Source: Olsenella uli (GTDB lineage: Bacteria; Actinomycetota; Coriobacteriia; Coriobacteriales; Atopobiaceae). Taken from it: DNA of 24,000 nt. Shown here one piece after another: positions 1 to 22,352 of the stretch. Both the position numbers and the translations under genes were made by a program. The notes below the pieces were generated by a model that was not told the origin of the DNA, did not search any database, and saw only the letters and a program-made list of their open reading frames with translations. The stretch covers positions 30,375 through 54,374 of the forward strand of contig NZ_CAAKOQ010000041.1 in NCBI RefSeq assembly GCF_901212675.1. Reading direction: 5' to 3'. Within the stretch, counting starts at the first letter, position 1; the number at the start of each line of letters is the position of its first letter.

Positions 1-1108
1 GCGCCTCGTCGTGGATGTCGAGCACCATGTTCTCGGCGACCGTGAACGGCAGCACCATGCCCCAGCGATGACGGTCGGACGGGATGGTGGCCACCGAGTG
101 GTCGAGCACGTTCTTGATCGAGGTGTTCTGGACCTCGGCGCCCTTGATGGAGATGGTGCCCGACTCGGCCTTGGCCAGGCCGTCGATGGCATAGGCGAGC
201 TCGGTCTGGCCATTGCCGTCGATGCCCGCGATGCCCACGATCTCGCCCGAGCGGACCTCGAGGTCAAGCCCCTTGACCTGCTCGATGCCGCGCTCGTCCT
301 TGACGTGCAGGCCATGCACGGCCAGCACCACGTCGCCGGGGGTGGCGGGCTTCTTGTCGACCTTGAAGCTCACGTGGCGTCCCACCATCTTGGAGGCGAG
401 CTCCTCCTCGCTCGAACTCGCCACGTCGACCGTGCCCATGTAGACGCCGCGGCGGATGATCGTGCACTCGTCGGCCGAGCTCATGATCTCCTTGAGCTTG
501 TGGGTGATGATGATGATCGTCTTGCCCTTGTTCACGAGGTCATGCATGATCTCGATGAGCTTGTCGATCTCCTGCGGGGTGAGCACGGCCGTGGGCTCGT
601 CAAGGATCAGCGTGTCGGCGCCGCGGTAGAGCACCTTGAGGATCTCGACGCGCTGCTGCATGCCCACGGAGATGTCCTCGATCTTGGCGTCGAGGTCGAT
701 GTCGAAGCCGTACTCGTCCGCGATCTGGGCCACCTTGGCGCGCGCCGCCTTGGGATCGAGGATGCCGGGGGCGCCGCACACCTCGTCGCCCAGCACGATG
801 TTCTCGGTGACGGTGAAGTTCTCCACAAGCATGAAGTGCTGGTGCACCATGCCGATGCCGTGCGTGATGGCATCGGTCGGGCTCTGGATGTCCACCTTCT
901 CGCCGTTGAGGAAGATGTCACCCTCGTCCGCCTGGTACAGGCCGTAGAGCACGTTCATGAGCGTGCTCTTGCCCGCGCCGTTCTCGCCCAGGATGGCATG
1001 GATGGACTGCTTCCTCACGTCGAGGTTGACGCCGTCGAGCGCCCGAAACGTGCCGAACACCTTGGTGATGCCGTGCATCTGGACCGCGTAGTCGGAACTG
1101 ACCTCCAT
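1..1108 (-). CDS. ABC transporter ATP-binding protein, tandem-NBD nucleoside/simple-sugar type (N-terminal ~369 codons; gene runs off the window start)
   Basis: Minus-strand frame starting at ATG 1108 is missing from the ORF track because it has no stop inside the window. It reads MEVSSDYAVQMHGITKVFGTFRALDGVNLDVRKQSIHAILGENGAGKSTLMNVLYGLYQADEGDIFLNGEKV... with Walker A GENGAGKST. It is still open at position 2 (...MVLPFTVAENMVLDIHDEA). SD GGGAGG lies ~6 nt upstream. It sits directly downstream of a BMP-family binding-protein gene. Confidence 0.85.
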   Translation of the reverse strand, partial: MEVSSDYAVQMHGITKVFGTFRALDGVNLDVRKQSIHAILGENGAGKSTLMNVLYGLYQADEGDIFLNGEKVDIQSPTDAITHGIGMVHQHFMLVENFTVTENIVLGDEVCGAPGILDPKAARAKVAQIADEYGFDIDLDAKIEDISVGMQQRVEILKVLYRGADTLILDEPTAVLTPQEIDKLIEIMHDLVNKGKTIIIITHKLKEIMSSADECTIIRRGVYMGTVDVASSSEEELASKMVGRHVSFKVDKKPATPGDVVLAVHGLHVKDERGIEQVKGLDLEVRSGEIVGIAGIDGNGQTELAYAIDGLAKAESGTISIKGAEVQNTSIKNVLDHSVATIPSDRHRWGMVLPFTVAENMVLDIHDEA

Positions 1109-1133
1109 GTGCCACCTCCCTCTCTTAGCATGT

Positions 1134-1165
1134 GTCGGGGGACGCCCCTGGGAGCGTCCCCCGAC
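1134..1165 (-). promoter_or_regulatory. Intercistronic GC-rich stem-loop between the binding-protein gene and the ATPase gene
   Basis: Perfect 12-bp arms GTCGGGGGACGC (1134-1145) and GCGTCCCCCGAC (1154-1165) flank an 8-nt loop. No U-tract follows on the minus strand, so it looks more like an mRNA stability or processing element than a terminator. Confidence 0.4.
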
Positions 1166-1198
1166 GTAGTGGGAATATGTGCTTGCCGGCTTCCGAGC

Positions 1199-2275
1199 CT
1201 ACGCCTTGAAGGAAGCCAGGTCGCTCTCGTTGGCGGGCGGCTTGATCTCGCCGCTCTTGATCTTGTCCTCAAGGGCGATGGCGTCGTTGTAGATCTCGTC
1301 GCCCATGATGCTGTGCTCCTCGGGAATGCCCACGCAGTCCTCCGTGGCGCCCAGGCTCACGTTGGTGCCACCCTCGATCTTGCCGCTCTGGAGCTGCGTG
1401 GAGACGTCGATGACGGCGGTGTTGACGCGCTTGAGCGCGGAGGTGATCACGTTTTCGGGAGCGAGGTAGGCCTGGTCGCGGTCGACGCCGATGGCGTACT
1501 TGCCGGCGTCCTTGGCGGCCTGGATGACGCCCGTGCCCACGCCGCCGGCCGCGTGGAAGACCACGTCGCAGCCGTCGGAGAACATCTTCTGGGCGATGGA
1601 CTTGCCCTTGGCGGAGTCGGAGAAGGACTCGGCGTACTGGCTCTGGACCTCGACGTTCAGGCCCTTCTCGGAGTTGGCGTACTGGACGCCGGCCTTGTAG
1701 CCAAACTCGAACTGGTCGATGACGTCAGACGAGATACCGCCCACGAAGCCGACCTTGCCCGTCTTGCTGAAGCGGGCCGCGATGTAGCCCACCATGAAGG
1801 ACGGCTCCTGCGCGCGGAACGTCACGCCGGTGATGTTGGCGGCGCCGGTGGGGTTGGCATTGTCGATGATGGCGAACTGGACGTCCGGGTTGGACTTGGC
1901 GCAGTTGCCCACGGCCTCGGCCATGGCAAAGCCGATGCCCCAGATCAGGTTGGAGCCGTCGTCGACCGCCTTGTCGAGGTTGGTGGCGTAGTCGCTCTCC
2001 TGCTTGGACTCCATGTAGCTGACGTCCCAGCCGTTGTCGGACTGGAGCTTCTGCAGACCCTCCCACGCGCTCTGGTTGAACGACTGATCGTTGACGCCGC
2101 CGGTGTCGGTGACCATCTCGATCTTGTAGCTGGCGCCGGACGCGGAGCCCGAGGTGGCAGCGGCGTCGCCGCCCGAGTTGCCGCCGCCACCGCAGCCCAC
2201 GAGGCCGAGGCCGGCAACCGCTGCCAGGGCACCCATGCCCTTGATGAAGCCACGACGGGAGATGTTGCTCTTCAT
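1199..2275 (-). CDS. BMP-family (PnrA/Med-like) ABC transporter substrate-binding lipoprotein, probable nucleoside-binding
   Basis: ORF 1199..2314 trimmed to the internal ATG at 2275, preceded by AAGGAAG. N-terminus MKSNISRRGFIKGMGALAAVAGLGLVGC has a twin-Arg-like signal plus lipobox LVGC. The body (VTDTGGVNDQSFNQSAWEG...GFVGG...AIGVDRDQ) is typical of the BMP/basic membrane lipoprotein family. Confidence 0.88.
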   Translation of the reverse strand: MKSNISRRGFIKGMGALAAVAGLGLVGCGGGGNSGGDAAATSGSASGASYKIEMVTDTGGVNDQSFNQSAWEGLQKLQSDNGWDVSYMESKQESDYATNLDKAVDDGSNLIWGIGFAMAEAVGNCAKSNPDVQFAIIDNANPTGAANITGVTFRAQEPSFMVGYIAARFSKTGKVGFVGGISSDVIDQFEFGYKAGVQYANSEKGLNVEVQSQYAESFSDSAKGKSIAQKMFSDGCDVVFHAAGGVGTGVIQAAKDAGKYAIGVDRDQAYLAPENVITSALKRVNTAVIDVSTQLQSGKIEGGTNVSLGATEDCVGIPEEHSIMGDEIYNDAIALEDKIKSGEIKPPANESDLASFKA

Positions 2276-2383
2276 TGGTACGCTTCCTTTCCCTTGCGAC
2301 CCGGCCTTCCGCACCGGGCCACCCTCGAGGCGGACTTCCGCCCCCTTATCAAACGGGCCGCACGGCCCGCCTCGTGCACATGC

Positions 2384-3103
2384 CTATGATGACACCGCGA
2401 CCTCCAGGGCGACCTCCATCATTTGGGTGAACGACGTCTGTCGGTCCTCGGCCGGTAGTCCCTCGCCCGAGAGCGGCAGGTCCGACACGGTGAGCAGGCA
2501 CAGCGCGTGCTTGCGCGCGCGGATGGCGTTGAGGTAGAGCGCCACGGACTCCATCTCCACCGCGAGCACGCCCATCGACGCCCAGCGCTCGTTGACCGTC
2601 TCGTCGTCGTTGTAGAAGACGTCCGAGGACAGCACGTTGCCAACCTTGTAGTCGTAGCCCAGGCGCTCGGCGGACTCGACGGCCTTGCGCAGGAGGCCAA
2701 AGTCGGCGATGGGGGCCAGCGTGCCCGGCATGCGGAACTGCGCGGCAAAGTTGGAGTCGGTGCAGGCGCCCATACCGATCACAAGGTCGCGCAGCCGGAC
2801 GTCGGGCGCGAGGCCGCCGGCCGTGCCGATGCGAATGATGTTGTTCACGTCGTAGAAGTTGAAGAGCTCGTAGGAGTAGATGCCGATGGACGGCACTCCC
2901 ATGCCCGAGCCCATGACCGAGACGGGCTTGCCCTTGTAGGTGCCCGTGAAGCCCAGCATGTTGCGCACCTGGTTGAAGCAGGTGACGTCCTCGAGGTAGG
3001 TGTCAGCCACGTACTTGGCGCGCAGCGGGTCGCCGGGCATGAGGACGGTCTTGGCGATCTGGCCCTCGGTCGCCTGGTTGTGGGGAGTGGGAGTCGCTGC
3101 CAT
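2384..3103 (-). CDS. deoD: Purine nucleoside phosphorylase, DeoD (hexameric) type
   Basis: 239 aa. Contains ...[21 protein letters not shown]...[30 protein letters not shown]...IRIGTAGG...VEMESVALY, typical of DeoD-type PNP. SD GGAGG upstream; the start lies 3 nt after the deoB stop. Confidence 0.93.
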
Positions 3104-3106
3104 GGC

Positions 3107-4318
<1,212 letters not shown>

Positions 4319-4699
4319 GTGGAGCCGCTCCTTCCTGGGGCGTACGTGTCCGCCAGTGCCGGTTGGCCCGGGTTCCGCAACGCTGCAGCGTAGGGTGGGT
4401 GGGATTGCGGCACTGGCTTGCTGGTCGCCTTGCGTTCTTAAGAAAAGTTTAGCCGACTGTCCCGATATTTCCATTCTGAAGACACTATTGCATCCAAGAC
4501 GTAACGAACAGGCAGCATATCGTTGGCCCCCGCGAGCGGTGGCGAGAATCCCGCGAATGGTATGCGGCCTTTCAACTTCTGTTGATAATGCGAGCGCGCG
4601 CCATGCACGGCGTGCCGGCGTGCGTTTGGGAAGGTGCCCGGCAGGCGCGTGCTCCGCATCTGGGCGCACGGCCGATGCGCCCGGCCCGCCCCGCGGCCC

Positions 4700-4788
4700 C
4701 GCACGCGCATGCGAAGCGCACCTTAACCTCGCGCTCAACATCATCCAATGTCGTTCCCGCAAGCTCGCACGCGCATGCGAAGCGCACC
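4700..4788. repeat. Perfect 23-bp direct repeat, two copies (4700-4722 and 4766-4788)
   Basis: CGCACGCGCATGCGAAGCGCACC occurs twice, 66 bp start-to-start. Each copy contains the near-palindrome GCGCATGCG. A degenerate third GCATGC-containing copy lies near 4815-4830. Confidence 0.8.
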
Positions 4789-4862
4789 CATCCGAAACAC
4801 GCCACCCATCATGCGAGCACACGCATGCCCGCAGCCGTCACAACCACGGATCACTCCTCATT

Positions 4863-4939
4863 GAACGTAGCGTTTTCGGACACGTGACGTCACAAAACCC
4901 CAGTTGGCAGAAAGCCGCTTGTCCAAAAACGCTACAGTC
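4863..4939. repeat. 77-bp palindromic intergenic repeat, copy 1 (MITE/REP-like)
   Basis: GAACGTAGCGTTTTCGGACA...CAAAACCCCAGTTGG...TGTCCAAAAACGCTACAGTC. The ~20-nt terminal arms are inverted complements (15 of 16 core pairs). Confidence 0.8.
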
Positions 4940-4975
4940 ACACATTCATGGGATTATGGACCTCACCCTTCTGCC

Positions 4976-5052
4976 GAACGTAGCTTTTTCGGACAAGCAG
5001 ACCCGCAAAACTCCAGTTGGTTGAAGACCTCTTGTCCGAAACTGCTACAGTC
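4976..5052. repeat. 77-bp palindromic intergenic repeat, copy 2
   Basis: GAACGTAGCTTTTTCGGACA...CAAAACTCCAGTTGG...TGTCCGAAACTGCTACAGTC. Same length and architecture as copy 1. Confidence 0.8.
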
Positions 5053-5080
5053 GCGCATCCTCGGGGGCCCGGCCCCTACC

Positions 5081-5157
5081 GAGCGTAGCGTTTTTGGACA
5101 GGCGGCCTTGCAAAACCGCAGTTGGCGGAGAGCGCCTTGTCCGAAAACGCTACGTTC
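5081..5157. repeat. 77-bp palindromic intergenic repeat, copy 3
   Basis: GAGCGTAGCGTTTTTGGACA...CAAAACCGCAGTTGG...TGTCCGAAAACGCTACGTTC. The arms pair along their whole length, and the stem extends inward (AGGCG/CGCCT). Confidence 0.8.
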
Positions 5158-5231
5158 GGGGTGTTGGGGTCTGTGATGGGTGTCGGCTGCTCGGCGGCAA
5201 TCAGCCGAAACACGCACGCAACCGAATCGCG

Positions 5232-5285
5232 CACGGGCGAGGGGCTTATCACGGGCGAGGGGCTAATCACGGGCGAGGGGTTTAT
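5232..5285. repeat. 18-bp tandem repeat x3 (iteron-like)
   Basis: CACGGGCGAGGGGCTTAT / CACGGGCGAGGGGCTAAT / CACGGGCGAGGGGTTTAT, head to tail. The array ends 75 bp upstream of the candidate -35 box. Confidence 0.85.
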
Positions 5286-5359
5286 CGAAGCGGACGCGGG
5301 CACAACCGCATGCCTTCACTGCCGTTTACCTGCGAATTCACCCTTTCTCCAGAGAGTGC

Positions 5360-5388
5360 TTTACGCCGCCCCACTCCCCTCGTATAAT
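5360..5388 (+). promoter_or_regulatory. Candidate sigma-70-type promoter for psuK-psuG-yjjI-yjjW
   Basis: TTTACG (5360-5365), 17-nt spacer, perfect TATAAT (5383-5388), followed by an AT-rich discriminator. It is the only consensus -10 in the region facing the plus-strand genes, and it implies a ~225-nt leader. Confidence 0.5.
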
Positions 5389-5619
5389 GCCTGTAGTAAA
5401 GAAATGATTATGGTTCTAAATCTTTGTTGATGTCGTTTCGACGCGGAGGCTGGGGCGCGGGGCCGTCAGGCACGAAGACCAGACCCCGACCGCGAAAGCC
5501 GGGCATCGGGCCAGCCACAATGACCGGTCACCCAACCCAGCACGCACACCAGACGACAGACCCCGACAAGGGACCAGGACAGACCCGCGGGCCCAGGGCA
5601 CAGCCGGAACGGAGGCAGG

Positions 5620-6759
5620 ATGGTCACCGAGCGCGAACGCCAAATCCTCGAGTGGATTCGCGAGGACCCCTCCATCAGCCAGAAGGAGATCGCGGAGCGG
5701 GCGAACATCTCGCGCTCCTCGGTGGCGGTCCACATCTCCAACCTCATCCGGAAGGGGGCCATCCTGGGCCGCCAGTACGTCCTGTCCGAGTCGCCCTACG
5801 CGGTGGTGGTGGGCGGTGCCAACATGGACATCGCCGGCAAGCCCTCCGAGCCGCTCGTGGCCCACGACTCCAACCCGGGCACGGTGCGTCTCTCCGCAGG
5901 CGGCGCCGGGCGAAACATCGCCCACAACATGGCCCTGCTCGGGTGCGACGTGAAGCTCATCTCGGCCTTTGGCGACGACGCACACGCCCGCGAGCTCATG
6001 GACGGCTGCCGGAACGCCGGCATCGACGCGCGCGGCTCGCTCGTGATCCCGGGTGCCACCACGTCCACCTACCTCTTCATCATGAACGAGGACGGCGACA
6101 TGGAGCTCGCCATCTCCGACATGGCCATCTACGACCAGCTGCTCCCCGCCCACCTCGAGCGCAAGCTCGACATCATCGAGAACGCGGCCCTCTGCGTGGT
6201 GGACACCAACATCCCCGCCGAGAGCCTGCGCTGGCTTGCCGACAACGTCTCCGTGCCGCTCTTCTGCGACCCGGTCTCCACCGTCAAGGCCACCAAGCTC
6301 GACGGCATCGTGGGAAAGCTCCACACCCTGAAGCCCAACCGCCTCGAGGCCGAGGTGCTCTCGGGCGTCCCCATCACCGACGAGGCGTCGCTCGGGCGAG
6401 CCGCCAAGGCCCTGCTCGACACGGGCCTTAAGCAGGTCTTCATCTCGCTCGACGCGCGCGGGCTCTACTGCGCCAACCACGAGCGCGCCGAGCTCCTCCC
6501 CATCATCAGGAGCCAGGTGACCAACGCCACCGGCGCGGGCGACTCCATGATGGCCGCCATCGCCTGGGCCTTCCTCGGCGGCGAGGACCTCGAGGGCCAG
6601 GGGCTCGCGGGGCTCGCCACCTCGTCGATCTGCGTAGAGTCGCCGGCGACCATCAACACCAACATCTGCGCCGACGCCGTCCGCAAGCGCATGGCGCAGG
6701 CAGATGCGGCGACCACGTTGCCCTCCCCCGCCACGCCCATGGCGGCCGCGGCCTCGTAG
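5620..6759 (+). CDS. psuK: Pseudouridine kinase family (PfkB) protein with N-terminal winged-HTH domain (PsuK/YeiI-like)
   Basis: 379 aa, SD GGAGG. N-terminus MVTERERQILEWIREDPSISQKEIAERANISRSSVAVHISNLIRKGAI is a wHTH. The PfkB kinase core follows (VVGGANMDI...GGAGRNIA...ATGAGDSMMAA). Sits immediately upstream of psuG. Confidence 0.85.
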   Translation: MVTERERQILEWIREDPSISQKEIAERANISRSSVAVHISNLIRKGAILGRQYVLSESPYAVVVGGANMDIAGKPSEPLVAHDSNPGTVRLSAGGAGRNIAHNMALLGCDVKLISAFGDDAHARELMDGCRNAGIDARGSLVIPGATTSTYLFIMNEDGDMELAISDMAIYDQLLPAHLERKLDIIENAALCVVDTNIPAESLRWLADNVSVPLFCDPVSTVKATKLDGIVGKLHTLKPNRLEAEVLSGVPITDEASLGRAAKALLDTGLKQVFISLDARGLYCANHERAELLPIIRSQVTNATGAGDSMMAAIAWAFLGGEDLEGQGLAGLATSSICVESPATINTNICADAVRKRMAQADAATTLPSPATPMAAAAS

Positions 6760-6873
6760 GCAGCCGGGCGCCCCGGCCAGCTGCCCCGGCGCCCACCAAA
6801 CCAGGTTCCACTCGCGCGTCGCACGCTGGCGCGCGCCCGTACGTCAAGGACAGCACGACACGAAAGGACACAC

Positions 6874-7803
6874 ATGAAGGAGCTCAACAAGTACCTCGAC
6901 ATCGCCCCCGAGGTCAAGGAGGCCCTCGACGCCGGCAAACCCGTCGTCGCCCTCGAGTCCACGATCATCTCGCACGGCATGCCCTACCCGCAGAACGTCG
7001 AGACGGCCCTCAAGGTCGAGCAGATCATCCGCGAGAACGGCGCCACGCCGGCCACTATCGCCGTCATCGGTGGGCGTCTGCGCGCGGGCCTCTCCAAGGA
7101 CGAGATCGACTACCTTGGCAAGAAGGGCCACGACGTCACCAAGGTGTCCCGTCGCGACCTCGCCGTGGTGTGCGCGCGCGGCATGGACGGCGCCACGACC
7201 GTGACCACCACGATGATCATCGCCCACATGGCCGGCATCGAGGTCTTCGCCACGGGCGGCATCGGCGGCGTGCACCGCGGTGCCGAGAAGACCATGGACA
7301 TCTCCGCCGACCTCGAGGAGCTCGCCAACACGCCGGTCATGGTCATCTGCGCCGGCGCCAAGTCCATCCTCGACCTGGGCCTCACCCTCGAGTACCTCGA
7401 GACCCACGGCGTGCCCGTGCTGGGCTACCAGACCTCCGAGCTGCCCGCGTTCTACACGCGCCACTCCGGCTTTGGCGTCGACTACGAGGTCGACTCGCCC
7501 GAGGACCTCGCCAAGATCTTCCACGCCAAGCGCGAGATGGGCCTGCGTGGCGGCGTGCTCGTGGGCAACCCCATCCCCGAGCAGTATTCGATGGACAAGG
7601 CCGTGATCGACAAGGCCATCGACGAGGCCATCGCCGAGGCCAACGAGAAGGGCATCCACGGCAAGGAGACCACGCCGTTCCTGCTTGCCAAGGTGGCCGA
7701 GATCACCGGCGGCGACTCGCTCGAGTCCAACATCGAGCTCGTCTTCAACAACGTGCGCCTGAGCGCCAAGACCGCCGTGGCCCTGCGCAACATCGAGGAC
7801 TAG
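6874..7803 (+). CDS. psuG: Pseudouridine-5'-phosphate glycosidase
   Basis: 309 aa, SD AAAGGA. Contains VALESTIISHGMPYPQN...TKVSRRD...GATTVTTTMIIAHMAGIEVFATGGIGGVHRG...DISADLEEL, characteristic of the PsuG/YeiN (IndA) family. Confidence 0.93.
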   Translation: MKELNKYLDIAPEVKEALDAGKPVVALESTIISHGMPYPQNVETALKVEQIIRENGATPATIAVIGGRLRAGLSKDEIDYLGKKGHDVTKVSRRDLAVVCARGMDGATTVTTTMIIAHMAGIEVFATGGIGGVHRGAEKTMDISADLEELANTPVMVICAGAKSILDLGLTLEYLETHGVPVLGYQTSELPAFYTRHSGFGVDYEVDSPEDLAKIFHAKREMGLRGGVLVGNPIPEQYSMDKAVIDKAIDEAIAEANEKGIHGKETTPFLLAKVAEITGGDSLESNIELVFNNVRLSAKTAVALRNIED

Positions 7804-7939
7804 CCGAGGGACGGCCGGCACCCGCCGCGCCGGTTGCGGCATCGTCATCGACCGTGCGGGCCTGGGGCGGCTCGACGCGGAGCTCAGGCACGAGCTTGAG
7901 TCGAACCTGCCGCATGGCACGAGAGAGAAGGAGTAGCCC

Positions 7940-9445
7940 ATGGCCACGCCCGAAGACGTGACGAGCATCGTCACCTCGAGGAAGCTCACCTACAAGCAGA
8001 AGAAGCTGCACCTGGCCCAGAGTGCCGAGAACAGCGTGAGTCCCATCAAGACCACCAAGCGCTTCGACTACTTCTTCGAGAACCACGCACTCGACGACAT
8101 GAGCGAGGGCAACGCGCCCTACCGGCCGCGCTACATCCTGCCCGACTACGAGCGCTTCGTCGAGAACGGCTCCAAGTTCCTCAAGCTCGATGCCCCCAAG
8201 GACCTCGACGACCTGCTCTGGGGCCTTGCGATGGTCTACGACAACGTGCCGTCGGTCACGAGCCGCCCGGTCTCGGTGGGTCAGCTCGACCGCATGATCG
8301 ACCCCTTCCTCGCGGGCGTCTCCGACGAGGAGGCAAAGGCCAAGCTCACGCGCTTCCTCACCTACATCGACCGCACGGTGGCCTCCGGCTACTGCCACGC
8401 CAACATCGGCCCGGAGGAGACCCGCGCCGGCAACCTGTTGCTCGAGGTCGAGGCCGAGGTCCAGAACGCCGTGCCCAACTTCACGATGAAGTACGAGGCG
8501 GGCGTGACCCCCGATGACTACGCACGCAAGGCCATCCGCTGCGCTATGAGGTGCGCCAACCCCGCGTTTGCCAACCACGCCATCCACAAGCACACCTACG
8601 AGGGCGACTACCAGGTCGTGAGCTGCTATAACGTGCTGCCCTACGGTGGCGGCGCCTATTGCCTCGACCGCCTGCTGCTGCCCGGCATGGCCAAGCTTGC
8701 GACGAGCGTCGACGACTTCATGGACAACGTCCTGCCCGAGGCGACGCTCGAGCTGTGCAACTACATCAACCAGCGCATCAGGTTCGAGGTCGAGGAGTCC
8801 GGGTTCTTCGACACGGATTGGCTCGTCACCGACGGCCTCGTGCACCGCGACCGCTTCGTGGCCATGTTCGGCCTTGCCGGCATGAGCGAGTGCGTGGCCA
8901 CCCTGCTGAACCTGCACAACGGGCGCGCCTACGGCACCGACCCCGAGGCCAACGCCCTGGCCGACCGCATCTGCGCGAAGGTCTACGACCTGGTCAACGG
9001 CTTTGACGCGGTGTACTCCGAGGCCGCGGTCGGGCGCTTCACCCTGCACGCGCAGGCCGGCTTCGGCGACCAGATGGGCGTCACACCGGGCGTGCGCATC
9101 AAGGTGGGCGACGAGCCCAAGGTCTTCTACGACCACATCCGCCAGGCCGCGAGCCTGCACAAGTACTTCAACGCCGGCGTCTCCGACATCTTCCCCGTCG
9201 AGCCCACGGCCGAGGGGAATCCCGACGCCATCCTCGACGTCATCAAGGCGGCGTTCGCCATCGGCGACAAGTACCTCTCGTTCTACTCGTCCGACTCCGA
9301 CCTGGTGCGCATCACGGGCTTCCTCGTGAAGCGCTCCGAGATCGAGAAGTACGCGCGCGGCGAGGTGGTGCTGGCCGACACGTCGCATGACGGCGAGGGC
9401 AACTGGCGGGCGAACGACCTCGGCGACCGGACGGTGCGCCTGTAG
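7940..9445 (+). CDS. yjjI: Glycyl-radical enzyme, YjjI family (DUF3029), function unknown
   Basis: 501 aa, SD AAGGAG 6 nt upstream, GC-rich third codon positions. EGNAPYRPRY block near the N-terminus. C-terminal glycyl-radical fingerprint DLVRITGFLV (Gly460 = codon 9317-9319), 41 residues from the end. Followed by a dedicated radical-SAM activase. Confidence 0.85.
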   Translation: MATPEDVTSIVTSRKLTYKQKKLHLAQSAENSVSPIKTTKRFDYFFENHALDDMSEGNAPYRPRYILPDYERFVENGSKFLKLDAPKDLDDLLWGLAMVYDNVPSVTSRPVSVGQLDRMIDPFLAGVSDEEAKAKLTRFLTYIDRTVASGYCHANIGPEETRAGNLLLEVEAEVQNAVPNFTMKYEAGVTPDDYARKAIRCAMRCANPAFANHAIHKHTYEGDYQVVSCYNVLPYGGGAYCLDRLLLPGMAKLATSVDDFMDNVLPEATLELCNYINQRIRFEVEESGFFDTDWLVTDGLVHRDRFVAMFGLAGMSECVATLLNLHNGRAYGTDPEANALADRICAKVYDLVNGFDAVYSEAAVGRFTLHAQAGFGDQMGVTPGVRIKVGDEPKVFYDHIRQAASLHKYFNAGVSDIFPVEPTAEGNPDAILDVIKAAFAIGDKYLSFYSSDSDLVRITGFLVKRSEIEKYARGEVVLADTSHDGEGNWRANDLGDRTVRL

Positions 9446-9459
9446 GTCGTCGTCAGAAG

Positions 9460-9537
9460 GGCGGGCAGGGCGTACTCCCAGCTCAGACAGCTCCGCTTGG
9501 TGCGGAGAACTCGCTGGGCCCGTACGCCCCGCCCGCC
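9460..9537 (+). promoter_or_regulatory. Large composite hairpin between yjjI and yjjW (candidate attenuator or mRNA 3'-stabiliser)
   Basis: Outer stem GGCGGGCAGGGCGTAC (9460-9475) pairs with GTACGCCCCGCCCGCC (9522-9537), 16 bp with 1 mismatch. Inner stems are CCCAGC/GCTGGG and CTCCGC-ttggt-GCGGAG. A T-rich run TTCTCTTTTTTCTTGTT (9560-9576) lies 22 nt further downstream. Confidence 0.55.
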
Positions 9538-9589
9538 TGACGCGGTTACGAGGCTGGGCTTCTCTTTTTTCTTGTTGGGAGTTCCTTGG

Positions 9590-10429
9590 ATGTCTGCGCA
9601 TGTGCCGGTGAACAATGTCATTCCGTTCTCCTTGGTGGACGGGCCGGGTGCGCGGTGCTCCATCTTCTTGCAGGGGTGCAACATCCGCTGCGCCTACTGC
9701 CATAACCCCGAGACGCAGCGGCTTTGCGTAGCTTGTGGCGAGTGCGTCCGGGCGTGTCCGGCGCACGCGCTCGCCATCGACGCCGGGGCGGTGACCTGGG
9801 ACGCGGACGCCTGCTGCGCGTGCGACACGTGCATCGGGACGTGCCGCCACCGCTCGAGCCCGCGCATCCGCCACCTCAGCGCCGAGGAACTGTATGCCGA
9901 GGTACGCGGCTTCATGCCCTTCATCCGCGGCGTCACCACTTCGGGCGGCGAGTGCATGCTCTACCCGGAGTTCCTGCGCGAGCTGTTTGCCCTTTGCAAG
10001 GGTGTGGGCCTGGGTTGCCTCATCGACTCGAACGGCACCATCGACTTCGCCCAGCACGAGGAGCTGCTCTCGCTTGCCGACGGCGTGATGCTTGACGTGA
10101 AGGCCTGGGACGACGACTGGTTCGTGCGGCTCACCGGCACCGACGGGGTGATGGTGCGCAAGAACCTCGCCCAGCTCAGCGAGGCCGGCAAGCTTGCCGA
10201 GGCGCGCGTCATCGTGACGGATGGCTGGAACGACCCGGAGGACGCCGTGCGCGGCATCGCGGCCACCGTGGGCAGTCGCGTGGGCTCCACGCGACTGCGT
10301 CTCATGCGCTTCAGGCACTTTGGCGTGCGCGGCGAGATGGCGAACGCCCCCTCGCCCACGGACGAGCGCATGGCTTCCATCGAGCGCGAGGCCCGAGGCC
10401 TTGGCTTTGGCGAGGTCGTCGTCTCGTAG
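9590..10429 (+). CDS. yjjW: Glycyl-radical enzyme activating protein, YjjW family (radical SAM)
   Basis: ORF 9497..10429 trimmed to ATG 9590; the upstream 31 codons lie inside the hairpin and T-tract. MSAHVPVNNVIPFSLVDGPGARCSIFLQGCNIRCAYCHNPE carries the CX3CX2C motif. Two ferredoxin-like clusters follow: CVACGECVRACP and CCACDTCIGTC. 279 aa. Confidence 0.88.
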   Translation: MSAHVPVNNVIPFSLVDGPGARCSIFLQGCNIRCAYCHNPETQRLCVACGECVRACPAHALAIDAGAVTWDADACCACDTCIGTCRHRSSPRIRHLSAEELYAEVRGFMPFIRGVTTSGGECMLYPEFLRELFALCKGVGLGCLIDSNGTIDFAQHEELLSLADGVMLDVKAWDDDWFVRLTGTDGVMVRKNLAQLSEAGKLAEARVIVTDGWNDPEDAVRGIAATVGSRVGSTRLRLMRFRHFGVRGEMANAPSPTDERMASIEREARGLGFGEVVVS

Positions 10430-10652
10430 CCAATGAGGCTGTTGATGGCTTGCAAGGCCTCAGGCTACGACCCGAATGGCGTTGGGCAGCCACGTGCGAG
10501 GTGCGTTGCAACGGAGTGATCGGCCGCAGGTGACAGCCGATAGCCCACGAGGCATCGTCGGGCGACCGCAAGGCGCCATCCGGAGCGAACAACCGCCAGC
10601 CCGCAGCCCGCAGCCCTCACCCCCGCAATCGCCCGCGCGTATACTGGTGTCC

Positions 10653-12362
10653 ATGAACACTCAGCCTGAAGTCGCCTGTCCCGCCGGCGCAGCCACCAGT
10701 CCCAGCCACCAGCCACACACGAGCCTCTCCAAGCTCGTCGAGCTCCTCGACGAGCGCGGCATCCTCGCGGGCGAGCGCGAGCTCGCGGCCGACACGCCCG
10801 TGACCGGCGCCGCCTGCGACTCGCGCTTCGTGCAGCCGGGCAACGTCTTCTTCTGCAAGGGACGCGCCTTCAAGCCTGCCTACCTCGCGTCCGCGCTCGA
10901 GAAGGGTGCCGTGGCCTACGTCTGCGAGCCTGCCCGCCTGAACGAGCTTGCCCAGGTGGCGCAGGGTGCACCCGCCATCGTCACGAGCGACATGCGCACC
11001 GCGATGGCCCTCGTCTCCGCCGCAGCGTTCGGCCACCCCGACCGCGCGCTTCCCCAGGTGGGCATCACGGGCACCAAGGGCAAGTCGACCTCGGCCTACA
11101 TGCTCAGATACATCATCGACGCCGCAAACGGACGCAAGACCTGCGGCGTCATCGGATCCATCGACACCTACGACGGCATCGAGGACGCCGAGTCGACCAA
11201 CACCACGCCCGAGGCCCCCGACCTCTGGCGCCACCTCGCCAACGCACGTGACGCCCGCCTCGACGCCATGGTGATGGAGATCTCGAGCCAAGCGCTCAAG
11301 TACGACCGCTCACTGGGCGTCGAGCTCGACGTCGCCGCCTTCCTGAACATCGGCACCGACCACATCTCGCCCGTCGAGCACCCCACGTTCGAGGATTACT
11401 TCGCAAGCAAGCTCAAGATCTTCCGCCAGGGTCGCGCCGCCGTGGTGAACCTCGGCAGCTCCCACATCGAGCGCATCCTGAGCTCGGCGCAGGGCGAGAA
11501 CTTCGAGGGCAAGGTGCCCACGCTCGTGGCCGTCTCCGCGCAGGGCCCCGACCCGGTCGAGTGCGGCAGCTGCGACATGGCCTTCCCCGACATCTGGGCC
11601 ACCGACGTGCGCCCCGAGGGGTCGCGCCTCACGTTCGTGGCACATGGCTCGGTAGGCTCTGCCAACGGCTCAAGCACCAAGGTTGCCGCCACGACCGACG
11701 AGGCCTGGCAGCTCCCGGTCACCATCAACTTCCCGGGGCTCTTCAACGTGGAGAACGCGCTCGTGGCCATCGCCTGCGCCAAGCTCCTCGGCATCTCGAA
11801 CGAGCATGTCGCCGCAGGTCTGGCGGCCTGCCGCGTGCCCGGCCGCATGGAGCTCGTGGGCAGTCCCGACGACCAGGTGGCCTGTGTGGTGGACTATGCC
11901 CACAACACCCTCTCCTACCAGAGCTTCTTTGCCTCGATGGCCAAGGAGTTCCCGGGCAGGCGCATCGTGGCGCTCATCGGTGCCCCGGGCGGCAAGGCCT
12001 ACGAGCGGCGCGTGGAGCTCCCGCGCGAGGCGGCGCGGTGGGCCAGCCACATCGTGGCCACCGAGGAGGACCCGGCCCACGACTCCAACGAGGACGTCTG
12101 CCGTGAGATGGACGACAACGTTCCCGCAGGCGCCACGCTTGCCGACGGCACGCCCGTGACGCACGAGTACGTGCTCGACCGCCAAAAGGCCGTGGCCCGC
12201 TGCCTCGACGTGGCGCTCTCCTACGGCCAGCCCGCCCTTGTGTGCCTGCTCGGCAAGGGCGACGAGACCCTCATCCACCGAGGCGACCGCTTCGAGCCCA
12301 TGATTCCCGACGCCGAGGCCTTCCGCCAGGCAGCCGCCGCACGCGGGCTCAGGCTCAGCTAG
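10653..12362 (+). CDS. murE: Mur ligase family protein, MurE-like (UDP-MurNAc-L-Ala-D-Glu : diamino-acid ligase, probably Lys/Orn-type)
   Basis: ORF 10476..12362 trimmed to ATG 10653. Contains TGAACDSRFVQPGNVFFCKGRAFKPAYLASALEKGAVAYV, P-loop GITGTKGKSTSAY and NVENALVAIA. The position equivalent to the DAP-specifying DNPR motif reads EDPA. TATACT lies 7 nt upstream of the ATG. Confidence 0.75.
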   Translation: MNTQPEVACPAGAATSPSHQPHTSLSKLVELLDERGILAGERELAADTPVTGAACDSRFVQPGNVFFCKGRAFKPAYLASALEKGAVAYVCEPARLNELAQVAQGAPAIVTSDMRTAMALVSAAAFGHPDRALPQVGITGTKGKSTSAYMLRYIIDAANGRKTCGVIGSIDTYDGIEDAESTNTTPEAPDLWRHLANARDARLDAMVMEISSQALKYDRSLGVELDVAAFLNIGTDHISPVEHPTFEDYFASKLKIFRQGRAAVVNLGSSHIERILSSAQGENFEGKVPTLVAVSAQGPDPVECGSCDMAFPDIWATDVRPEGSRLTFVAHGSVGSANGSSTKVAATTDEAWQLPVTINFPGLFNVENALVAIACAKLLGISNEHVAAGLAACRVPGRMELVGSPDDQVACVVDYAHNTLSYQSFFASMAKEFPGRRIVALIGAPGGKAYERRVELPREAARWASHIVATEEDPAHDSNEDVCREMDDNVPAGATLADGTPVTHEYVLDRQKAVARCLDVALSYGQPALVCLLGKGDETLIHRGDRFEPMIPDAEAFRQAAAARGLRLS

Positions 12363-12434
12363 CCCCCAGCTCGTACCCACGCGGCCGCCGGGCGGGCGGC
12401 CGCAGCCATGTCAGCCCGCGCCCAAGGAGGCCCC

Positions 12435-13352
12435 ATGCCCACCAGCCACCCCACGTTCCCGACGCGTCCAACCGGCGAGCTTGCGGAGCGCCTGCGCAAG
12501 GTGCGCTACGTCATCACCGACGCCGACGGCACCATGTTCACCGGCGCCAAGGCGACGGTGAACACCGCCGGCGAGCCGTCGGCCGAGCTCGTCGAGACGC
12601 TCGTGGAGCTCACGAAGGCGGGCGTGGGCGTCATCCCTTGCACCGGGCGCAACCGCGCCATGATCCAGGAGGACGCGCGCGTGCTGGGCTTTCCCGGCTG
12701 GATCGCCGAGATGGGCGGCGTGCTCTGCACCCGCCAGTCGAGCAACCCTGAGTGGCACTACTTCACGGGCACGATGCCCTACGACGAGGCGAGCGGCAAG
12801 ACCCCGCATGATGTCATCTGCGAGACGGGCGTCATCGACGAGGTGCTCGCGCGCTGGCCGGGACACCTCGAGACCTACCACGATAACGGCATCGGCTTCG
12901 AGTATCGCGAGGTCACGGTGGCGCTGCGCGGCGACGCCCCCGAGGACGACATCCAGGACATGCTCGACCACTCGGGCCTGCCGCTTTATCTTTCGGACAA
13001 CGGCATGGTCAACCACATCTCGGGCGCGAGCGAACTCGTCTGCGACCACGCGCACCCCGAGGGCATCCACACCTACCACATAACGCCCGCCGGCGTGAGC
13101 AAGGGCTCGGGCATCCTGCGCTTCATCGAGCTTGCCGGCCTCGAGCCCGACGAAGTGCTTGGCGCCGGGGACTCCCCCGCCGACTGCGTGATTGCCGACG
13201 CCGTGGGCACGTTCCTGTTCATGTGCAACGGCCTTGGGCACGAACGCGCCAAGGAGGAGCTGGCCGCCCGCGACAACATCCTCATCTCCACCAAGCGCGC
13301 GACCGACGGCTGGGTGGCCGCCATGCGGGGGCTACTCGCGGCGAAGGAGTAG
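12435..13352 (+). CDS. HAD-superfamily hydrolase (Cof/HAD-IIB-like phosphatase)
   Basis: Second ATG chosen because of the strong SD AAGGAGG 4 nt upstream. Motif I ITDADGT, motif II CTGR, motif IV GAGDSPAD. Substrate unknown. Confidence 0.75.
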   Translation: MPTSHPTFPTRPTGELAERLRKVRYVITDADGTMFTGAKATVNTAGEPSAELVETLVELTKAGVGVIPCTGRNRAMIQEDARVLGFPGWIAEMGGVLCTRQSSNPEWHYFTGTMPYDEASGKTPHDVICETGVIDEVLARWPGHLETYHDNGIGFEYREVTVALRGDAPEDDIQDMLDHSGLPLYLSDNGMVNHISGASELVCDHAHPEGIHTYHITPAGVSKGSGILRFIELAGLEPDEVLGAGDSPADCVIADAVGTFLFMCNGLGHERAKEELAARDNILISTKRATDGWVAAMRGLLAAKE

Positions 13353-13403
13353 CTGAAGGTCCGGCGCCCGGCCTCCGCGGTCTTCAAGGACGTGCGCCCT
13401 CGC

Positions 13404-13838
13404 CTACAGTTTGATGGGAATCCACTGTTCGTGGTCGCAGATCCAGGCCTCGGTCTCCTCGACCTTGGGGAAGGCGAGGGTCGGGTCGTCGGGCCCGTCG
13501 TAGTGCTCGCCCAGGCCCTCGAGGTGCTCGAAGCCGGCGCGCCGCACCTCGTCGCTCACGGGCGCGCGAAGGTCCACGCGACCGCGCAGCACGAGCCAAC
13601 CATGGCCCGGCCACCACGACGTGGCCTCGAACCAGGGGTTCTCCTCGAGCTCGTCCCACACGTCCTTGGTCGTCGCGGTGCAGAGCCTGAGCGCCCCGTC
13701 CTCGATCGCCGCGTACGAGAAGGGCCGCACGTGCGGCCGGTGGTCCACGCTCGTGGCGAGGTACCAGGCGCGCACCGACGTGAGGTAGCGGAGCACGAGC
13801 TCGAGGCCCTCTTCCTGGGGATGATTCGTCGCTGGCAT
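13404..13838 (-). CDS. Pyridoxamine-5'-phosphate-oxidase-like FMN-binding split-barrel protein
   Basis: ORF 13404..14159 trimmed to ATG 13838 (SD GGAGG). The 144-aa product MPATNHPQEEGLELVLRYLTSVRAWYLATSVDHRPHVRPFSYAAIEDGALRLCTATTKDVWDELEENPW... follows the pattern of small PNPOx-family flavoproteins. Lies 52 bp downstream of ecfT. Confidence 0.7.
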   Translation of the reverse strand: MPATNHPQEEGLELVLRYLTSVRAWYLATSVDHRPHVRPFSYAAIEDGALRLCTATTKDVWDELEENPWFEATSWWPGHGWLVLRGRVDLRAPVSDEVRRAGFEHLEGLGEHYDGPDDPTLAFPKVEETEAWICDHEQWIPIKL

Positions 13839-13890
13839 GCCAGCCTCCATCTCTGTCGAAGTCGAACGGGCGGCACCGAGCGCGCCAACG

Positions 13891-14694
13891 CTACCCGGCC
13901 AGTACGTTTGCCGCCACCACGGCCGCGAGCAGCACCACCATGACGGCGCAGCCCACGGCGTCGCGACGCGCAAGGCGCAGCGGATGCAGCTTGGTGCGTC
14001 CCTGCTCGCCATGGTAGCAGCGGGCGTCCATCGCGGCCGCCAGCGTCTCCGCGTGGCGGAACACGCTCGCGAACATCGGCACCGCCACCGACGAGAGCGC
14101 CCGCACGCCGCGCAGCGGGCTGCCCGAGAGCCGCGCGCCGCGCGAGAGCTGCGCCGCATACGTCGCGCGCATCTCCCCCGCGAGCTGGGGCATGAACCTG
14201 AGTGCGATGCCCAGCATCATGCCAAGCTCGTGCGCCGGCACGCCCACGCGCGCAAGCGGGGCAAGCAGGTGCTCGAAGGCAGTCGTGAGGTCGAGCGCGG
14301 TGGTCGTGAGGGTTACGAGCGACATGCCCGCCATCATCGCCGTGAGGCGCACGACCGTGGAGAGGCACGAGCGCAGGCTGCCCTCGCTTATCTGGAAGAC
14401 GCCCCACGACCACAGCGTCTCGCCGGCCTGGTCGGTGAACAGCCTGAGCACGCACACGAGCACAACGATGGGAAGCATGGGCGCAAGCGATCGCAGCGCA
14501 CGGCCGGCCGGTATGCCCGCCACGCGGTACAGCGCGACGACAAAGAGCGCGAGCACGGCAAGCGCCACCGGTGCCTGCCCCACGAGCGACACGATGAGGA
14601 AGCAGAGTCCAAGCGCGAGCTTGGCGCGCGGGTCCATCCGATGCAGTGGGCTGTCGCCAGGCCAGTAGCTGCCAAAGGAGAAGGCGTCCGTCAT
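13891..14694 (-). CDS. ecfT: Energy-coupling-factor transporter transmembrane component EcfT
   Basis: 267 aa and hydrophobic. MDPRAKL near the N-terminus and an ARG-type coupling helix region (AAQLSRGARL) are typical of the EcfT/CbiQ family. The start overlaps the ATPase stop by 4 nt. Confidence 0.85.
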   Translation of the reverse strand: MTDAFSFGSYWPGDSPLHRMDPRAKLALGLCFLIVSLVGQAPVALAVLALFVVALYRVAGIPAGRALRSLAPMLPIVVLVCVLRLFTDQAGETLWSWGVFQISEGSLRSCLSTVVRLTAMMAGMSLVTLTTTALDLTTAFEHLLAPLARVGVPAHELGMMLGIALRFMPQLAGEMRATYAAQLSRGARLSGSPLRGVRALSSVAVPMFASVFRHAETLAAAMDARCYHGEQGRTKLHPLRLARRDAVGCAVMVVLLAAVVAANVLAG

Positions 14695-18681: not shown

Positions 18682-19092
18682 ACGAGTTCCTCCACATCAT
18701 TTGCGCCGGCAGCTAGGCCGACGAACTACCGGCGGCATATACCGTCAGCTCCCCGTTTGGCAGCCCCCTGTGGACGTGCCAGAAGCGCGCCGGCTCACAT
18801 TGCCCTGTCGCCTTGCTTCGCTCTAAATTGTATCCAGCGTGTTACAGACGCAGACGACCCAATCCGCAAGCGTGGAAAACCGACCGCCTACAGAATTTCA
18901 TGAGCTCTTGATTTACACGAGCGGTTGATCTTGCTCTGGTGGACATCTTGTCTCTCTAAGACATATGTCGCGAGACGGGCCGGCATCCTGGGTACGTACG
19001 CCAGCCGACGTGTGGCCTTACGCATGGGGGCGCCGAGCGAGCAGTCCCGCGCGACGCCCCCCGTAGTCCCCTCTTCCGGTTCCGCGACGGCC

Positions 19093-20250: not shown

Positions 20251-20261
20251 GCGTGCCTCCG

Positions 20262-20299
20262 GGAAGAAAGGGGCGCCCCGCCTGCACGGCGAGGCGCCC
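20262..20299 (-). terminator. Terminator-like hairpin downstream of gldA, abutting the aminotransferase SD
   Basis: The minus-strand RNA forms a 12-bp stem, GGGCGCCUCGCC-gugca-GGCGGGGCGCCC (one G.U pair), followed by CUUUCUUCCC and then directly GGAGGcacgcAUG. Confidence 0.55.
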
Positions 20300-20351
20300 G
20301 CATACGTGAATGGGCGTAATTGTACGACAGCGCGCGGACCTGGCCGAGCCG

Positions 20352-22299: not shown

Positions 22300-22352
22300 A
22301 TGGTCTCGTCAATCGACGCGAGGCCTCGCGGCACGCGCCCGCCTCTGGAGGG

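Follow-up and report, generated by a model that had tools for sequence, protein, structure and literature searches.

The glycyl radical enzyme YjjI, its activase YjjW and their association with nucleoside and pseudouridine utilisation genes in Olsenella uli and other anaerobes

The glycyl radical enzyme YjjI and its radical S-adenosylmethionine (SAM) activase YjjW are catalogued in TIGRFAM (TIGR04040 and TIGR04041) and Pfam (PF11230), and the family has no assigned function; to our knowledge, YjjI is the only E. coli glycyl radical enzyme still without one. The family is well represented among anaerobes of the gut and mouth, and more than 2000 sequence clusters were matched, one of them with 1528 member sequences. 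In the annotated E. coli record the pair lies divergent from the deoCABD genes (deoD<deoB<deoA<deoC< >yjjI>yjjW, where angle brackets give the direction of transcription) across a 257-bp spacer. Here we analyze the homologous pair of Olsenella uli, encoded in a 24,000-nucleotide stretch (the window; contig NZ_CAAKOQ010000041.1, positions 30,375 to 54,374; G+C about 67%) beside genes for the uptake and breakdown of nucleosides and pseudouridine. The original prediction for this stretch, made from its sequence, had given the E. coli arrangement correctly and had proposed that YjjI and YjjW have a functional tie to the processing, under anaerobic conditions, of some product derived from nucleosides.

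E. coli yjjI is directly activated by FNR (PMC3688515), CRP binds within the yjjI/deoC spacer (PMC4287617), and yjjI and yjjW of Yersinia are induced anaerobically (PMC3792023). The only functional prediction found was "nitrogen metabolism," from an expression bicluster that placed yjjI with nitrate and nitrite genes (PMC3228777). Full-text searches of the literature outside subscription journals returned no functional study of YjjI/YjjW, DUF3029 or PF11230, and none in which a glycyl radical was combined with pseudouridine, a nucleoside or ribose. A June 2026 review of the glycyl radical superfamily likewise makes no mention of YjjI, of nucleosides or of a nucleoside-linked enzyme of this kind.

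Both window proteins exceed the curated cutoffs of the family to which the E. coli proteins belong, and the two loci share the RITG(Y/F) glycine motif, the SCYN cysteine loop, an adjacent activase and neighboring deo genes. The window YjjI shares 37% identity with the E. coli protein, 63–73% with its counterparts in genomes of Atopobium, Tractidigestivibacter and Coprovicinus, and 91% with the one encoded by an uncultured Coriobacteriaceae genome. The E. coli genes overlap, whereas the window pair is separated by a 144-bp spacer containing a hairpin and follows psuK-psuG; in addition, the E. coli locus has deoCABD without the Bmp-ABC and psuKG genes present in the window. The window DeoB, DeoD, PsuG and Bmp proteins are, by hidden Markov model (HMM) score, bona fide members of the classical deoCABD, psuKG (yeiC-yeiN) and Bmp/PnrA ABC modules. 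As described, these modules have no radical enzyme, whereas the window and many anaerobes embed a glycyl radical pair in them.

Two further systems bear comparison. Class III ribonucleotide reductase (RNR; NrdD) resembles YjjI in its ten-stranded barrel, its Gly and Cys loops, its radical-SAM activase, its oxygen sensitivity (predicted for YjjI) and its link to ribosyl substrates, but it is 600–700 aa long against about 500 aa for YjjI, and the genomic context of YjjI is, unlike that of NrdD, catabolic. A 2024 paper in the Journal of the American Chemical Society is said to describe YbiW/PflD as anhydro-sugar-phosphate C-O lyases that feed an aldolase, giving glyceraldehyde-3-phosphate and a C2/C3 fragment. 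The parallel is that an E. coli glycyl radical enzyme, once an orphan itself, cleaves a C-O bond of a sugar phosphate by radical chemistry ahead of an aldolase, and it is a conceptual lead only: YbiW/PflD are pyruvate formate-lyase (PFL)-type enzymes of about 800 aa with a Cys-x-Glu loop, whereas YjjI is of the NrdD type, with 500 aa and Cys-x-Asn.

Genomic neighborhoods of yjjI and yjjW

Genomes searched with a profile built from 11 YjjI sequences yielded at least 586 relatives, of which the best 80, one per species, were analyzed with up to 10 kb on each side. Together with E. coli, Haliovirga and the window these gave 83 loci, and eight proteobacterial and Chloroflexota loci brought the total to 91; some of the contigs end within the flanks. 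Neighbors were called by tblastn with the window and E. coli proteins plus representatives from clustering, and the nucleoside genes counted were Bmp, PNP/Udp, DeoB, DeoC, DeoA, Cdd, PsuK and PsuG. At least one of these nucleoside uptake or catabolism genes was present within 10 kb of yjjI in 60 of the 83 loci, and in 63 of the 91 overall. The co-localization count that the original prediction had called for was therefore strongly positive, with at least 10 arrangements, and supports the functional tie that it had proposed. In our judgment it is very probable that YjjI works in nucleoside utilization.

The commonest neighbors among the 83 loci were a Bmp homolog (47 loci) and an ABC ATPase homologous to that of the window (48), followed by PNP-family phosphorylases (36; matches to about 19 uridine phosphorylases, TIGR01718, and about 21 DeoD), DeoB (27), DeoC (25; a true deoC in the Atopobiaceae, TIGR00126, 253 bits), a PsuK-like kinase (23), PsuG (19), Cdd (18) and DeoA (2). 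The kinase was present in all 19 psuG loci. Across the loci the neighboring enzymes are Udp, Cdd, DeoD, DeoB, DeoC, Add and PsuKG.

Open reading frames (ORFs) were also clustered without labels. Outside the Atopobiaceae, the families present in at least five loci were YjjI, YjjW, Bmp, the ABC ATPase, permeases, a Crp-family regulator, PNP/Udp, DeoC, Cdd, DeoB, a PsuK-type kinase and YitT, with all remaining families in four loci or fewer, so that the YitT membrane protein was the sole recurrent family besides the nucleoside genes and the regulator. No universal single-copy housekeeping family in the clustering was as frequent as the single-copy deoB, deoC and cdd, and dihydropyrimidinase, ureidopropionase and other base-degradation genes did not recur among the clustered neighbors. 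This internal absence of recurring unrelated families served as our null, together with a rough estimate that a random 20-kb segment would hold nucleoside genes of this kind in <5% of cases, given a handful of such loci per 2–5 Mb genome. The YitT-family protein (PF02588) was found in nine loci (L024-L027, L031, L036, L066, L067, and L076), accompanied in the L024-L026 group by an ECF S-component, EcfT and a LacI regulator.

At least 10 architectures were seen, spanning Actinomycetota, Bacillota, Spirochaetota and Pseudomonadota. The Atopobiaceae have Bmp<DeoD<DeoB< >PsuK>PsuG>[Crp]>YjjI>YjjW> <DeoC, with deoC convergent to yjjW in 13 loci. In the Lachnospiraceae the pair lies within the Bmp-ABC transporter operon ([Udp]>Bmp>YjjI>YjjW>ATPase>permeases>[Cdd, DeoD, DeoC, DeoB]), while Tissierella, Epulonipiscium and Hungatella have Crp>YjjI>YjjW>Bmp>ABC. 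The order is YjjI>YjjW>Cdd>Bmp>ABC in Peptoniphilaceae and in Filifactor, where PsuK>PsuG come later on the downstream side; PsuG<PsuK...ABC<Bmp<Cdd< Crp>YjjI>YjjW in Anaerotruncus; Udp> <DeoB Crp>YjjI>YjjW in Caproiciproducens; and YjjI>YjjW...PsuK>PsuG in Clostridium drakei and C. thailandense. A second Bmp subfamily, accompanied by a GntR regulator, is found in several Clostridia and in a Spirochaetaceae genome. Three unrelated families of nucleoside transporter adjoin yjjIW in different lineages, namely Bmp-ABC, NupG (PF03825) and NupC. The NupG symporter lies directly after yjjW in Neobacillus (L030), a locus that we counted as nucleoside-linked.

The E. coli layout is repeated in Enterobacter and, with other outer flanks, in Edwardsiella, where a NupC-type nucleoside transporter is convergent to yjjW. 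Proteus has radA-serB-ytjB-yjjI-yjjW without the lplA-deo block, and no nucleoside neighbors were found at the yjjI loci of Providencia, Vibrio, Aeromonas and Microbulbifer. The echo of E. coli seen by the original prediction is therefore a real adjacency but not a general one, since among the Gammaproteobacteria surveyed it holds only for Enterobacteriaceae and Hafniaceae, which are part of the Enterobacterales. H. influenzae HI0520/HI0521 may adjoin deoD and nupC.

A Crp/Fnr-family regulator of about 245 aa, with a cyclic nucleotide-binding domain and a helix-turn-helix (HTH) and without an N-terminal Cys cluster, is encoded directly upstream of yjjI in 36 loci from many phyla (L004, L006-L012, L014-L017, L023-L026, L029, L030, L033, L035, L038, L041-L043, L050, L057, L061, and others); a GntR/FCD regulator takes its place in L028, L031, L034 and L036. 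Fourteen of the 23 Atopobiaceae loci have the Crp/Fnr-family gene, there between psuG and yjjI. Both this regulator and deoC are absent from the window and from L003 and L005, its nearest relatives, in all of which yjjI comes directly after psuG and a gene for a Mur-ligase paralog comes after yjjW. The proposal that the glycyl radical pair is fused into a psuKG string thus holds for the direct junction itself, but the junction is derived in this lineage. Most relatives keep the Crp gene and the downstream deoC, both of which the window has lost, and gene order points to a recent, lineage-specific loss of the dedicated regulator, which has probably put yjjIW under the psuK promoter.

Some loci had features of their own. 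Two yjjI paralogs flank one yjjW in an Oscillospiraceae locus (L052:9953-13851), and a conserved ORF of 356–361 aa with no Pfam or NCBIfam match lies right after yjjW in L049:12320-13390, L059:12336-13421 and L060:10786-11874. The bins labeled Senegalimassilia (L071) and Alistipes (L049) have the gene order of Lachnospiraceae/Eubacteriales loci and may be mis-binned contigs.

Fold and conserved residues of YjjI

The AlphaFold2 model of the window YjjI, built with 57 homologs, has a pLDDT of 90.6 and a pTM of 0.91. Its best Foldseek match is a class III RNR (E = 6e-16, TMq 0.72), and the top 28 matches are all NrdD structures (TMq 0.59–0.74, 12–14% identity). These are followed by PFL-type enzymes including YbiW and PflD, and PDB entries 8id7 and 8yjo, which bear on the YbiW/PflD comparison, are among the matches. 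Searches of all PDB chains with the single YjjI sequence and with a 57-sequence profile gave noise only, so the relationship between YjjI and NrdD is a structural one only.

In the model C229 and G460 each occupy the tip of a beta-hairpin, the placement common to all glycyl radical enzymes. These residues, within S228-C229-Y-N231 (the VSCYN loop) and R457-I-T-G460-F, are invariant in 86 of 86 full-length homologs from seven phyla. There is no second conserved Cys among the 86, the next best being present in 64 and 60 of them, and YjjI has neither form of the reducing set of NrdD-type enzymes (a second bottom-face Cys with a Met, or a Cys pair with a Glu). An hhalign alignment to E. coli NrdD, of low confidence (probability 1.9%) and to be read as a hint only, matches C229 to Cys384 and places Val227 at Met382, while Cys175 falls opposite a gap, in the place of the conserved "APYRPRY." The C-terminal zinc ribbon of NrdD is absent, with zero Cys in the last 60 residues of YjjI. 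So is the ATP cone, as YjjI begins directly with the barrel and matches only YjjI-like families in Pfam and NCBIfam at the thresholds used. Because it is without the second Cys, the Met, the zinc ribbon and the ATP cone of NrdD, YjjI as modeled is a compact NrdD-like glycyl radical enzyme but not a ribonucleotide reductase.

Besides the radical residues, R64, H153, N180, N212, N231, R244, H370, Q372, R386, E392, D416, and R457 are conserved in at least 97% of the 86 homologs. These are mostly Arg, His, Asn, Asp and Glu residues, which would suit a sugar or phosphate ligand. The dedicated YjjW-type activase, encoded 144 bp downstream, carries the motif C30-X3-C-X2-C together with the ferredoxin-like motifs CVACGECVRAC and CCACDTCIGTC.

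Organization of the Olsenella uli locus

HMM searches against Pfam and NCBIfam/TIGRFAM confirmed all genes named by the original prediction, which had read the minus strand as genes for an ABC ATPase and a BMP nucleoside-binding lipoprotein, deoD and deoB, and the divergent plus strand as psuK, psuG, yjjI and yjjW (Table 1). Both DeoB and DeoD score above their equivalog cutoffs. The true ATG of deoB is at 4318 ("MSESSRTNRR"), with the mechanical ORF extending to 4822, and 3 bp lie between the deoB stop and the deoD start. The probable start of the Bmp/PnrA-like gene is the Met at 2275. The kinase upstream of psuG comes closest to two equivalog models but falls below the cutoffs of both (YeiI, NF007416, 275.6 vs. 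561; PsuK, NF007355, 216.6 vs. 540); we assign it as a PfkB kinase of the YeiI/PsuK clade with an extra HTH, and possibly it also acts as a regulator.

Table 1. Features of the window around yjjI and yjjW; positions count from the first nucleotide of the window.
Feature	Position	Strand	Evidence
N-terminal part of an ABC transporter ATPase (two ABC_tran stretches), truncated by the start of the window	1–1108	-	PF00005, E = 6e-42
Bmp/PnrA-like nucleoside-type substrate-binding lipoprotein, twin-arginine translocation (TAT) signal	1199–2314	-	PF02608 293.5 bits; PF10518
deoD, DeoD-type purine nucleoside phosphorylase	2384–3103	-	NF004489 342 bits (cutoff 230); TIGR00107 299.5 bits (cutoff 232)
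deoB, phosphopentomutase, 403 aa	3107–4318	-	NF003766 500 bits; TIGR01696 456 bits (cutoff 341)
Divergent deoB-psuK control region with repeats	4319–5619		Repeat search; comparison with L003
Promoter-like site TTTACG-17-TATAAT upstream of the kinase gene	5360–5388	+	10/12 consensus matches
Winged-HTH and PfkB kinase, YeiI/PsuK-like; putative pseudouridine kinase	5620–6759	+	PF13412 and PF00294
psuG, pseudouridine-5'-phosphate glycosidase	6874–7803	+	PF04227 456.9 bits, 291/291 profile positions
yjjI, NrdD-fold glycyl radical enzyme	7940–9445	+	TIGR04040 588.8 bits (cutoff 498.3); PF11230 662 bits, 485/485 positions
yjjI-yjjW spacer: long GC-rich hairpin (9447–9545), then small stem and T-run (9550–9572)	9447–9572	+	Folding vs. 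shuffles; terminator-like match
yjjW, radical-SAM activase, 279 aa; ATG at 9590, GGGAG ribosome-binding site	9590–10429	+	TIGR04041 353.7 bits (cutoff 250.2)
Stem-loop over the yjjW stop codon	10425–10469	+	Minimum free energy (MFE) -23.5 kcal/mol, z = -3.19; 1/200 shuffles folds as well

The divergent region between deoB and psuK is about 850 bp longer than in L003, the closest relative. Its repeats comprise three tandem 90-nt palindromic units (4863–5170), each with 16-nt inverted arms (GTAGCGTTTTCGGACA / N37 / TGTCCGAAAACGCTAC), together with 3 x 18 nt (5232–5286) and 2 x 33 nt (4690–4788). Six of the 16-nt half sites are present in the region, against 0.16 expected. The repeats were not found elsewhere in the window, and because the 16-nt arm matched none of the 83 other loci they could not be classified; candidate explanations include a mobile repeat, an operator array and a small RNA.

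Downstream of these repeats lies the sole promoter-like site found on the plus strand. It is probably a real promoter, since its hexamers and the flanking and following sequence are conserved in L003, just upstream of psuK, and it likely drives the plus-strand unit, as judged from sequence. The psuK ATG of L003 lies about 55 nt after the conserved promoter, and relative to L003 the psuK leader of the window has a GC-rich insertion of about 170 nt (5435–5605). No riboswitch or known RNA was matched in Rfam (E <= 1, positions 1–10,600), so neither the leader, with its insertion, nor the three plus-strand gaps correspond to a known RNA element.

The lengths of these gaps, 114, 136 and 144 bp, had been predicted exactly. 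They had also been said to contain no convincing promoter or canonical terminator, and we found no promoter-like site in any of them. The terminator part of that claim stands for the psuK-psuG and psuG-yjjI gaps, where folding was no better than for shuffled sequence, but not for the yjjI-yjjW spacer, which has a hairpin and a T-run. This hairpin is about 100 nt long (MFE -73.7 kcal/mol for the 150-nt stretch folded, z = -2.86; 2/200 shuffles fold equally well). Five Atopobiaceae relatives have hairpins of unrelated sequence in the same spacer, so that position, not sequence, is conserved: L003 (11500–11649, z = -7.7), L004 (11498–11610, a 14-bp GC stem followed by the U-run UUUUCUUUA), L005:3868-3985, L007:11474-11575 and L018:11489-11590. 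In E. coli and many Firmicutes, unlike these Atopobiaceae, yjjI and yjjW overlap or abut. We consider the hairpin a candidate for a conserved partial terminator or transcript stabilizer that would lower expression of the activase relative to the enzyme. The stem-loop over the yjjW stop codon is likely the end of the plus-strand unit. Given the conserved upstream promoter and gaps free of promoter-like sites, we infer a single transcription unit, psuK-psuG-yjjI-yjjW.

The rest of the window begins with a plus-strand stretch (10476–13352) that encodes a Mur-ligase-family paralog of 628 aa and then a HAD-IIB hydrolase. The paralog, which also follows yjjW in L003, scores 307 bits against the MurE model (cutoff 762) and has an N-terminal extension of about 100 residues without a match. 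In the next 1.3 kb (13353–14690), long ORFs of the two strands overlap (435 aa, minus; 303 aa, plus), with no Pfam match at E <= 1 and no homolog in any fetched locus. A 797-aa ORF (14691–17084, minus) has two ABC_tran domains from residue 209, its N-terminal 208 residues matching no Pfam family, and 59 nt upstream of it lies a flavin mononucleotide (FMN) riboswitch (RF00050, 17143–17336, minus; 82.6 bits vs. a gathering score of 66.2); the ORF probably encodes a flavin-regulated transporter ATPase fusion. The remaining minus-strand genes (17467–23951) encode an Fe-alcohol dehydrogenase, a class I/II aminotransferase, a second Fe-alcohol dehydrogenase-like protein, an RF-1-domain (ArfB-like) protein and a hybrid-cluster protein. 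Eleven relatives have the first Fe-alcohol dehydrogenase gene in synteny, downstream of yjjW and deoC, a position that would fit acetaldehyde disposal.

Possible substrates and chemistry of YjjI

We favor, with moderate confidence, the explanation that the window is an anaerobic nucleoside and pseudouridine utilization locus in which YjjI acts on the ribosyl unit. On the minus strand, nucleosides would be imported by the Bmp-ABC system and phosphorolyzed by DeoD, with DeoB converting ribose-1-phosphate to ribose-5-phosphate, while on the plus strand PsuK and PsuG would convert pseudouridine to uracil and ribose-5-phosphate. By analogy with other glycyl radical enzymes, YjjW would draw on SAM and a reduced Fe-S cluster to generate the YjjI radical at Gly460, from where it would pass to Cys229 for abstraction of a substrate hydrogen. 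The spacer hairpin would probably keep the level of the activase under that of the enzyme.

That the ribose part is where YjjI acts is itself somewhat probable. The neighboring enzymes Udp, DeoD, DeoA, Cdd, Add, DeoB, PsuK and PsuG all converge on ribose phosphate and a free base, and ribose phosphate has no dedicated consumer in the clusters except YjjI. Because of this convergence, and because no base-degrading genes recur, ribose-5-phosphate is the prime candidate among the ribosyl units that the locus would import or release, the alternatives being ribose-1-phosphate and an intact ribonucleoside. The equilibria of PsuG and DeoB favor pseudouridine-5'-phosphate and ribose-5-phosphate, so that a consumer encoded right after psuG would be sensible. 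With an NrdD fold, the likeliest chemistry is loss of the 2-hydroxyl, most likely by C-O bond cleavage at C2' as at the start of the RNR reaction, and a product at the deoxy-pentose level would go to a DeoC-type aldolase, giving glyceraldehyde-3-phosphate and acetaldehyde. We put forward only tentatively that the product is a 2-deoxypentose phosphate feeding DeoC; instead of being reduced in this way, it may stay at the keto level. The original prediction had speculated about an NrdD-like deoxygenation or dehydration; its reductive form is weakened by the lack of the NrdD reducing Cys and Met in YjjI, which leaves an elimination or a differently reduced step as options.

Several observations weigh against the explanation we favor. 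The sample is the best 80 of at least 586 matches and is biased toward relatives of the query, 23 of the loci being from Atopobiaceae. Twenty-eight of the 91 loci have no nucleoside neighbor, among them most Bacteroidota, Proteus, Providencia, Vibrio, Aeromonas, Microbulbifer, Chloroflexota and Haliovirga. When loci without nucleoside genes were examined for another shared context, no second theme emerged, the neighbors having nothing in common (histidine kinase, GNAT, SPOUT methyltransferase, pectate lyase, RibBA, autotransporter and others). YjjI has a single universally conserved Cys and, in the low-confidence hhalign alignment, no counterpart of NrdD Cys175 or Met382, so the residues give no support for a net NrdD-style reduction to a deoxy sugar. 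Neither a reductant partner (formate channel, thioredoxin or NrdH) nor a ketoreductase recurs among the clustered neighbors, and this, with the missing Cys and Met, argues against a simple copy of NrdD chemistry. As DeoC also belongs to ordinary deo clusters without YjjI, its presence near YjjI may be hitch-hiking. The substrate is moreover deduced from context, and a gene neighborhood cannot separate ribose-5-phosphate, ribose-1-phosphate, a nucleoside and a modified nucleoside. Finally, it is not obvious why E. coli, or any other organism whose pentose phosphate pathway works, would need such a bypass.

An intact nucleoside is the second candidate because the transporter is the tightest partner of the pair. 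YjjI might dehydrate or reduce an imported nucleoside at the 2' position, giving (3'-keto-)2'-deoxynucleosides, or it might cleave a phosphorylase-resistant modified or 2'-O-methyl nucleoside from RNA turnover. The commonest and closest neighbor is indeed the Bmp-ABC transporter, within whose operon the Lachnospiraceae pair lies, rather than DeoB or DeoC; the minimal clusters consist only of Crp-yjjI-yjjW-Bmp-ABC (L033, L035, and L029); and the fold is that of a nucleotide-binding enzyme. We nevertheless find this role rather unlikely, given that phosphorylases for ordinary nucleosides in the same clusters would make a second route seem redundant, that 3'-keto-2'-deoxynucleosides are, from established RNR chemistry, chemically unstable, that no ketoreductase or deoxynucleoside kinase is conserved among the clustered neighbors, and that yjjI of the window follows psuG, whose products are uracil and ribose-5-phosphate. 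It is improbable that the association reflects shared regulation or hitch-hiking, with YjjI handling an unrelated small molecule near anaerobically or CRP-controlled nucleoside operons. Such an explanation would account for the 28 loci without nucleoside neighbors, for the narrow Gammaproteobacterial distribution of the link and for the expression bicluster with nitrate and nitrite genes (PMC3228777), but it has to contend with at least 10 independent arrangements in four phyla, three unrelated transporter families adjacent to the pair, its insertion within a transporter operon, and no other functional class in five or more loci.

The remaining two alternatives are much less credible. The NrdD-like fold and the link to nucleoside import, reversible phosphorylases and DeoB would suit an anabolic, RNR-like enzyme that makes deoxyribosyl donors (deoxynucleosides or deoxyribose-1-phosphate) from salvaged nucleosides for anoxic DNA synthesis. 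However, the reducing residues, allosteric ATP cone and zinc ribbon of NrdD are missing, the neighbors DeoC, Cdd and Udp are catabolic, and, according to one report, E. coli without all three known RNRs needs a deoxyribonucleoside supplement (PMC10121223), YjjI being absent from that report by full-text search; we therefore hold this role to be very unlikely. Slightly more doubtful again is action on the released base. Uracil would be the candidate, as the common product of Udp, of Cdd with Udp, and of PsuG, and the neighbors lean toward pyrimidines (Udp in about 19 loci, Cdd in 18, PsuG in 19), but the purine-specific DeoD is equally common, base-catabolic genes such as dihydropyrimidinase and ureidopropionase are not recurrent, and the fold and polar conserved residues suit a sugar or phosphate ligand better.

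Taken to its full extent, action on the ribosyl unit could make YjjI the missing enzyme of an anaerobic radical pentose route, in which it would remove the 2-hydroxyl of ribose-5-phosphate, ribose-1-phosphate or a ribonucleoside without the Cys/Met machinery of NrdD, and DeoC would split the product. Formate held by the conserved Arg62/Arg64 could then replace NrdD Cys175, or a redox-neutral step could be followed by a separate reduction. We regard this route as speculative and, on balance, unlikely; if it exists, ribose from any nucleoside, including pseudouridine, would be converted to glyceraldehyde-3-phosphate and acetaldehyde without recourse to the pentose phosphate pathway.

What emerges is not a system of a new kind but a solid lead, open to test, on an enzyme that has been an orphan. 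The robust link to nucleoside import and catabolism across phyla reduces the substrates to be considered to a few compounds that can be bought, and with so short a list of candidates the question of the substrate becomes directly testable. If YjjI does act on the ribose unit, a radical step would be added to the deo/psu pathway, which was thought to be fully known, and an RNR-type fold would have been reused for catabolism.

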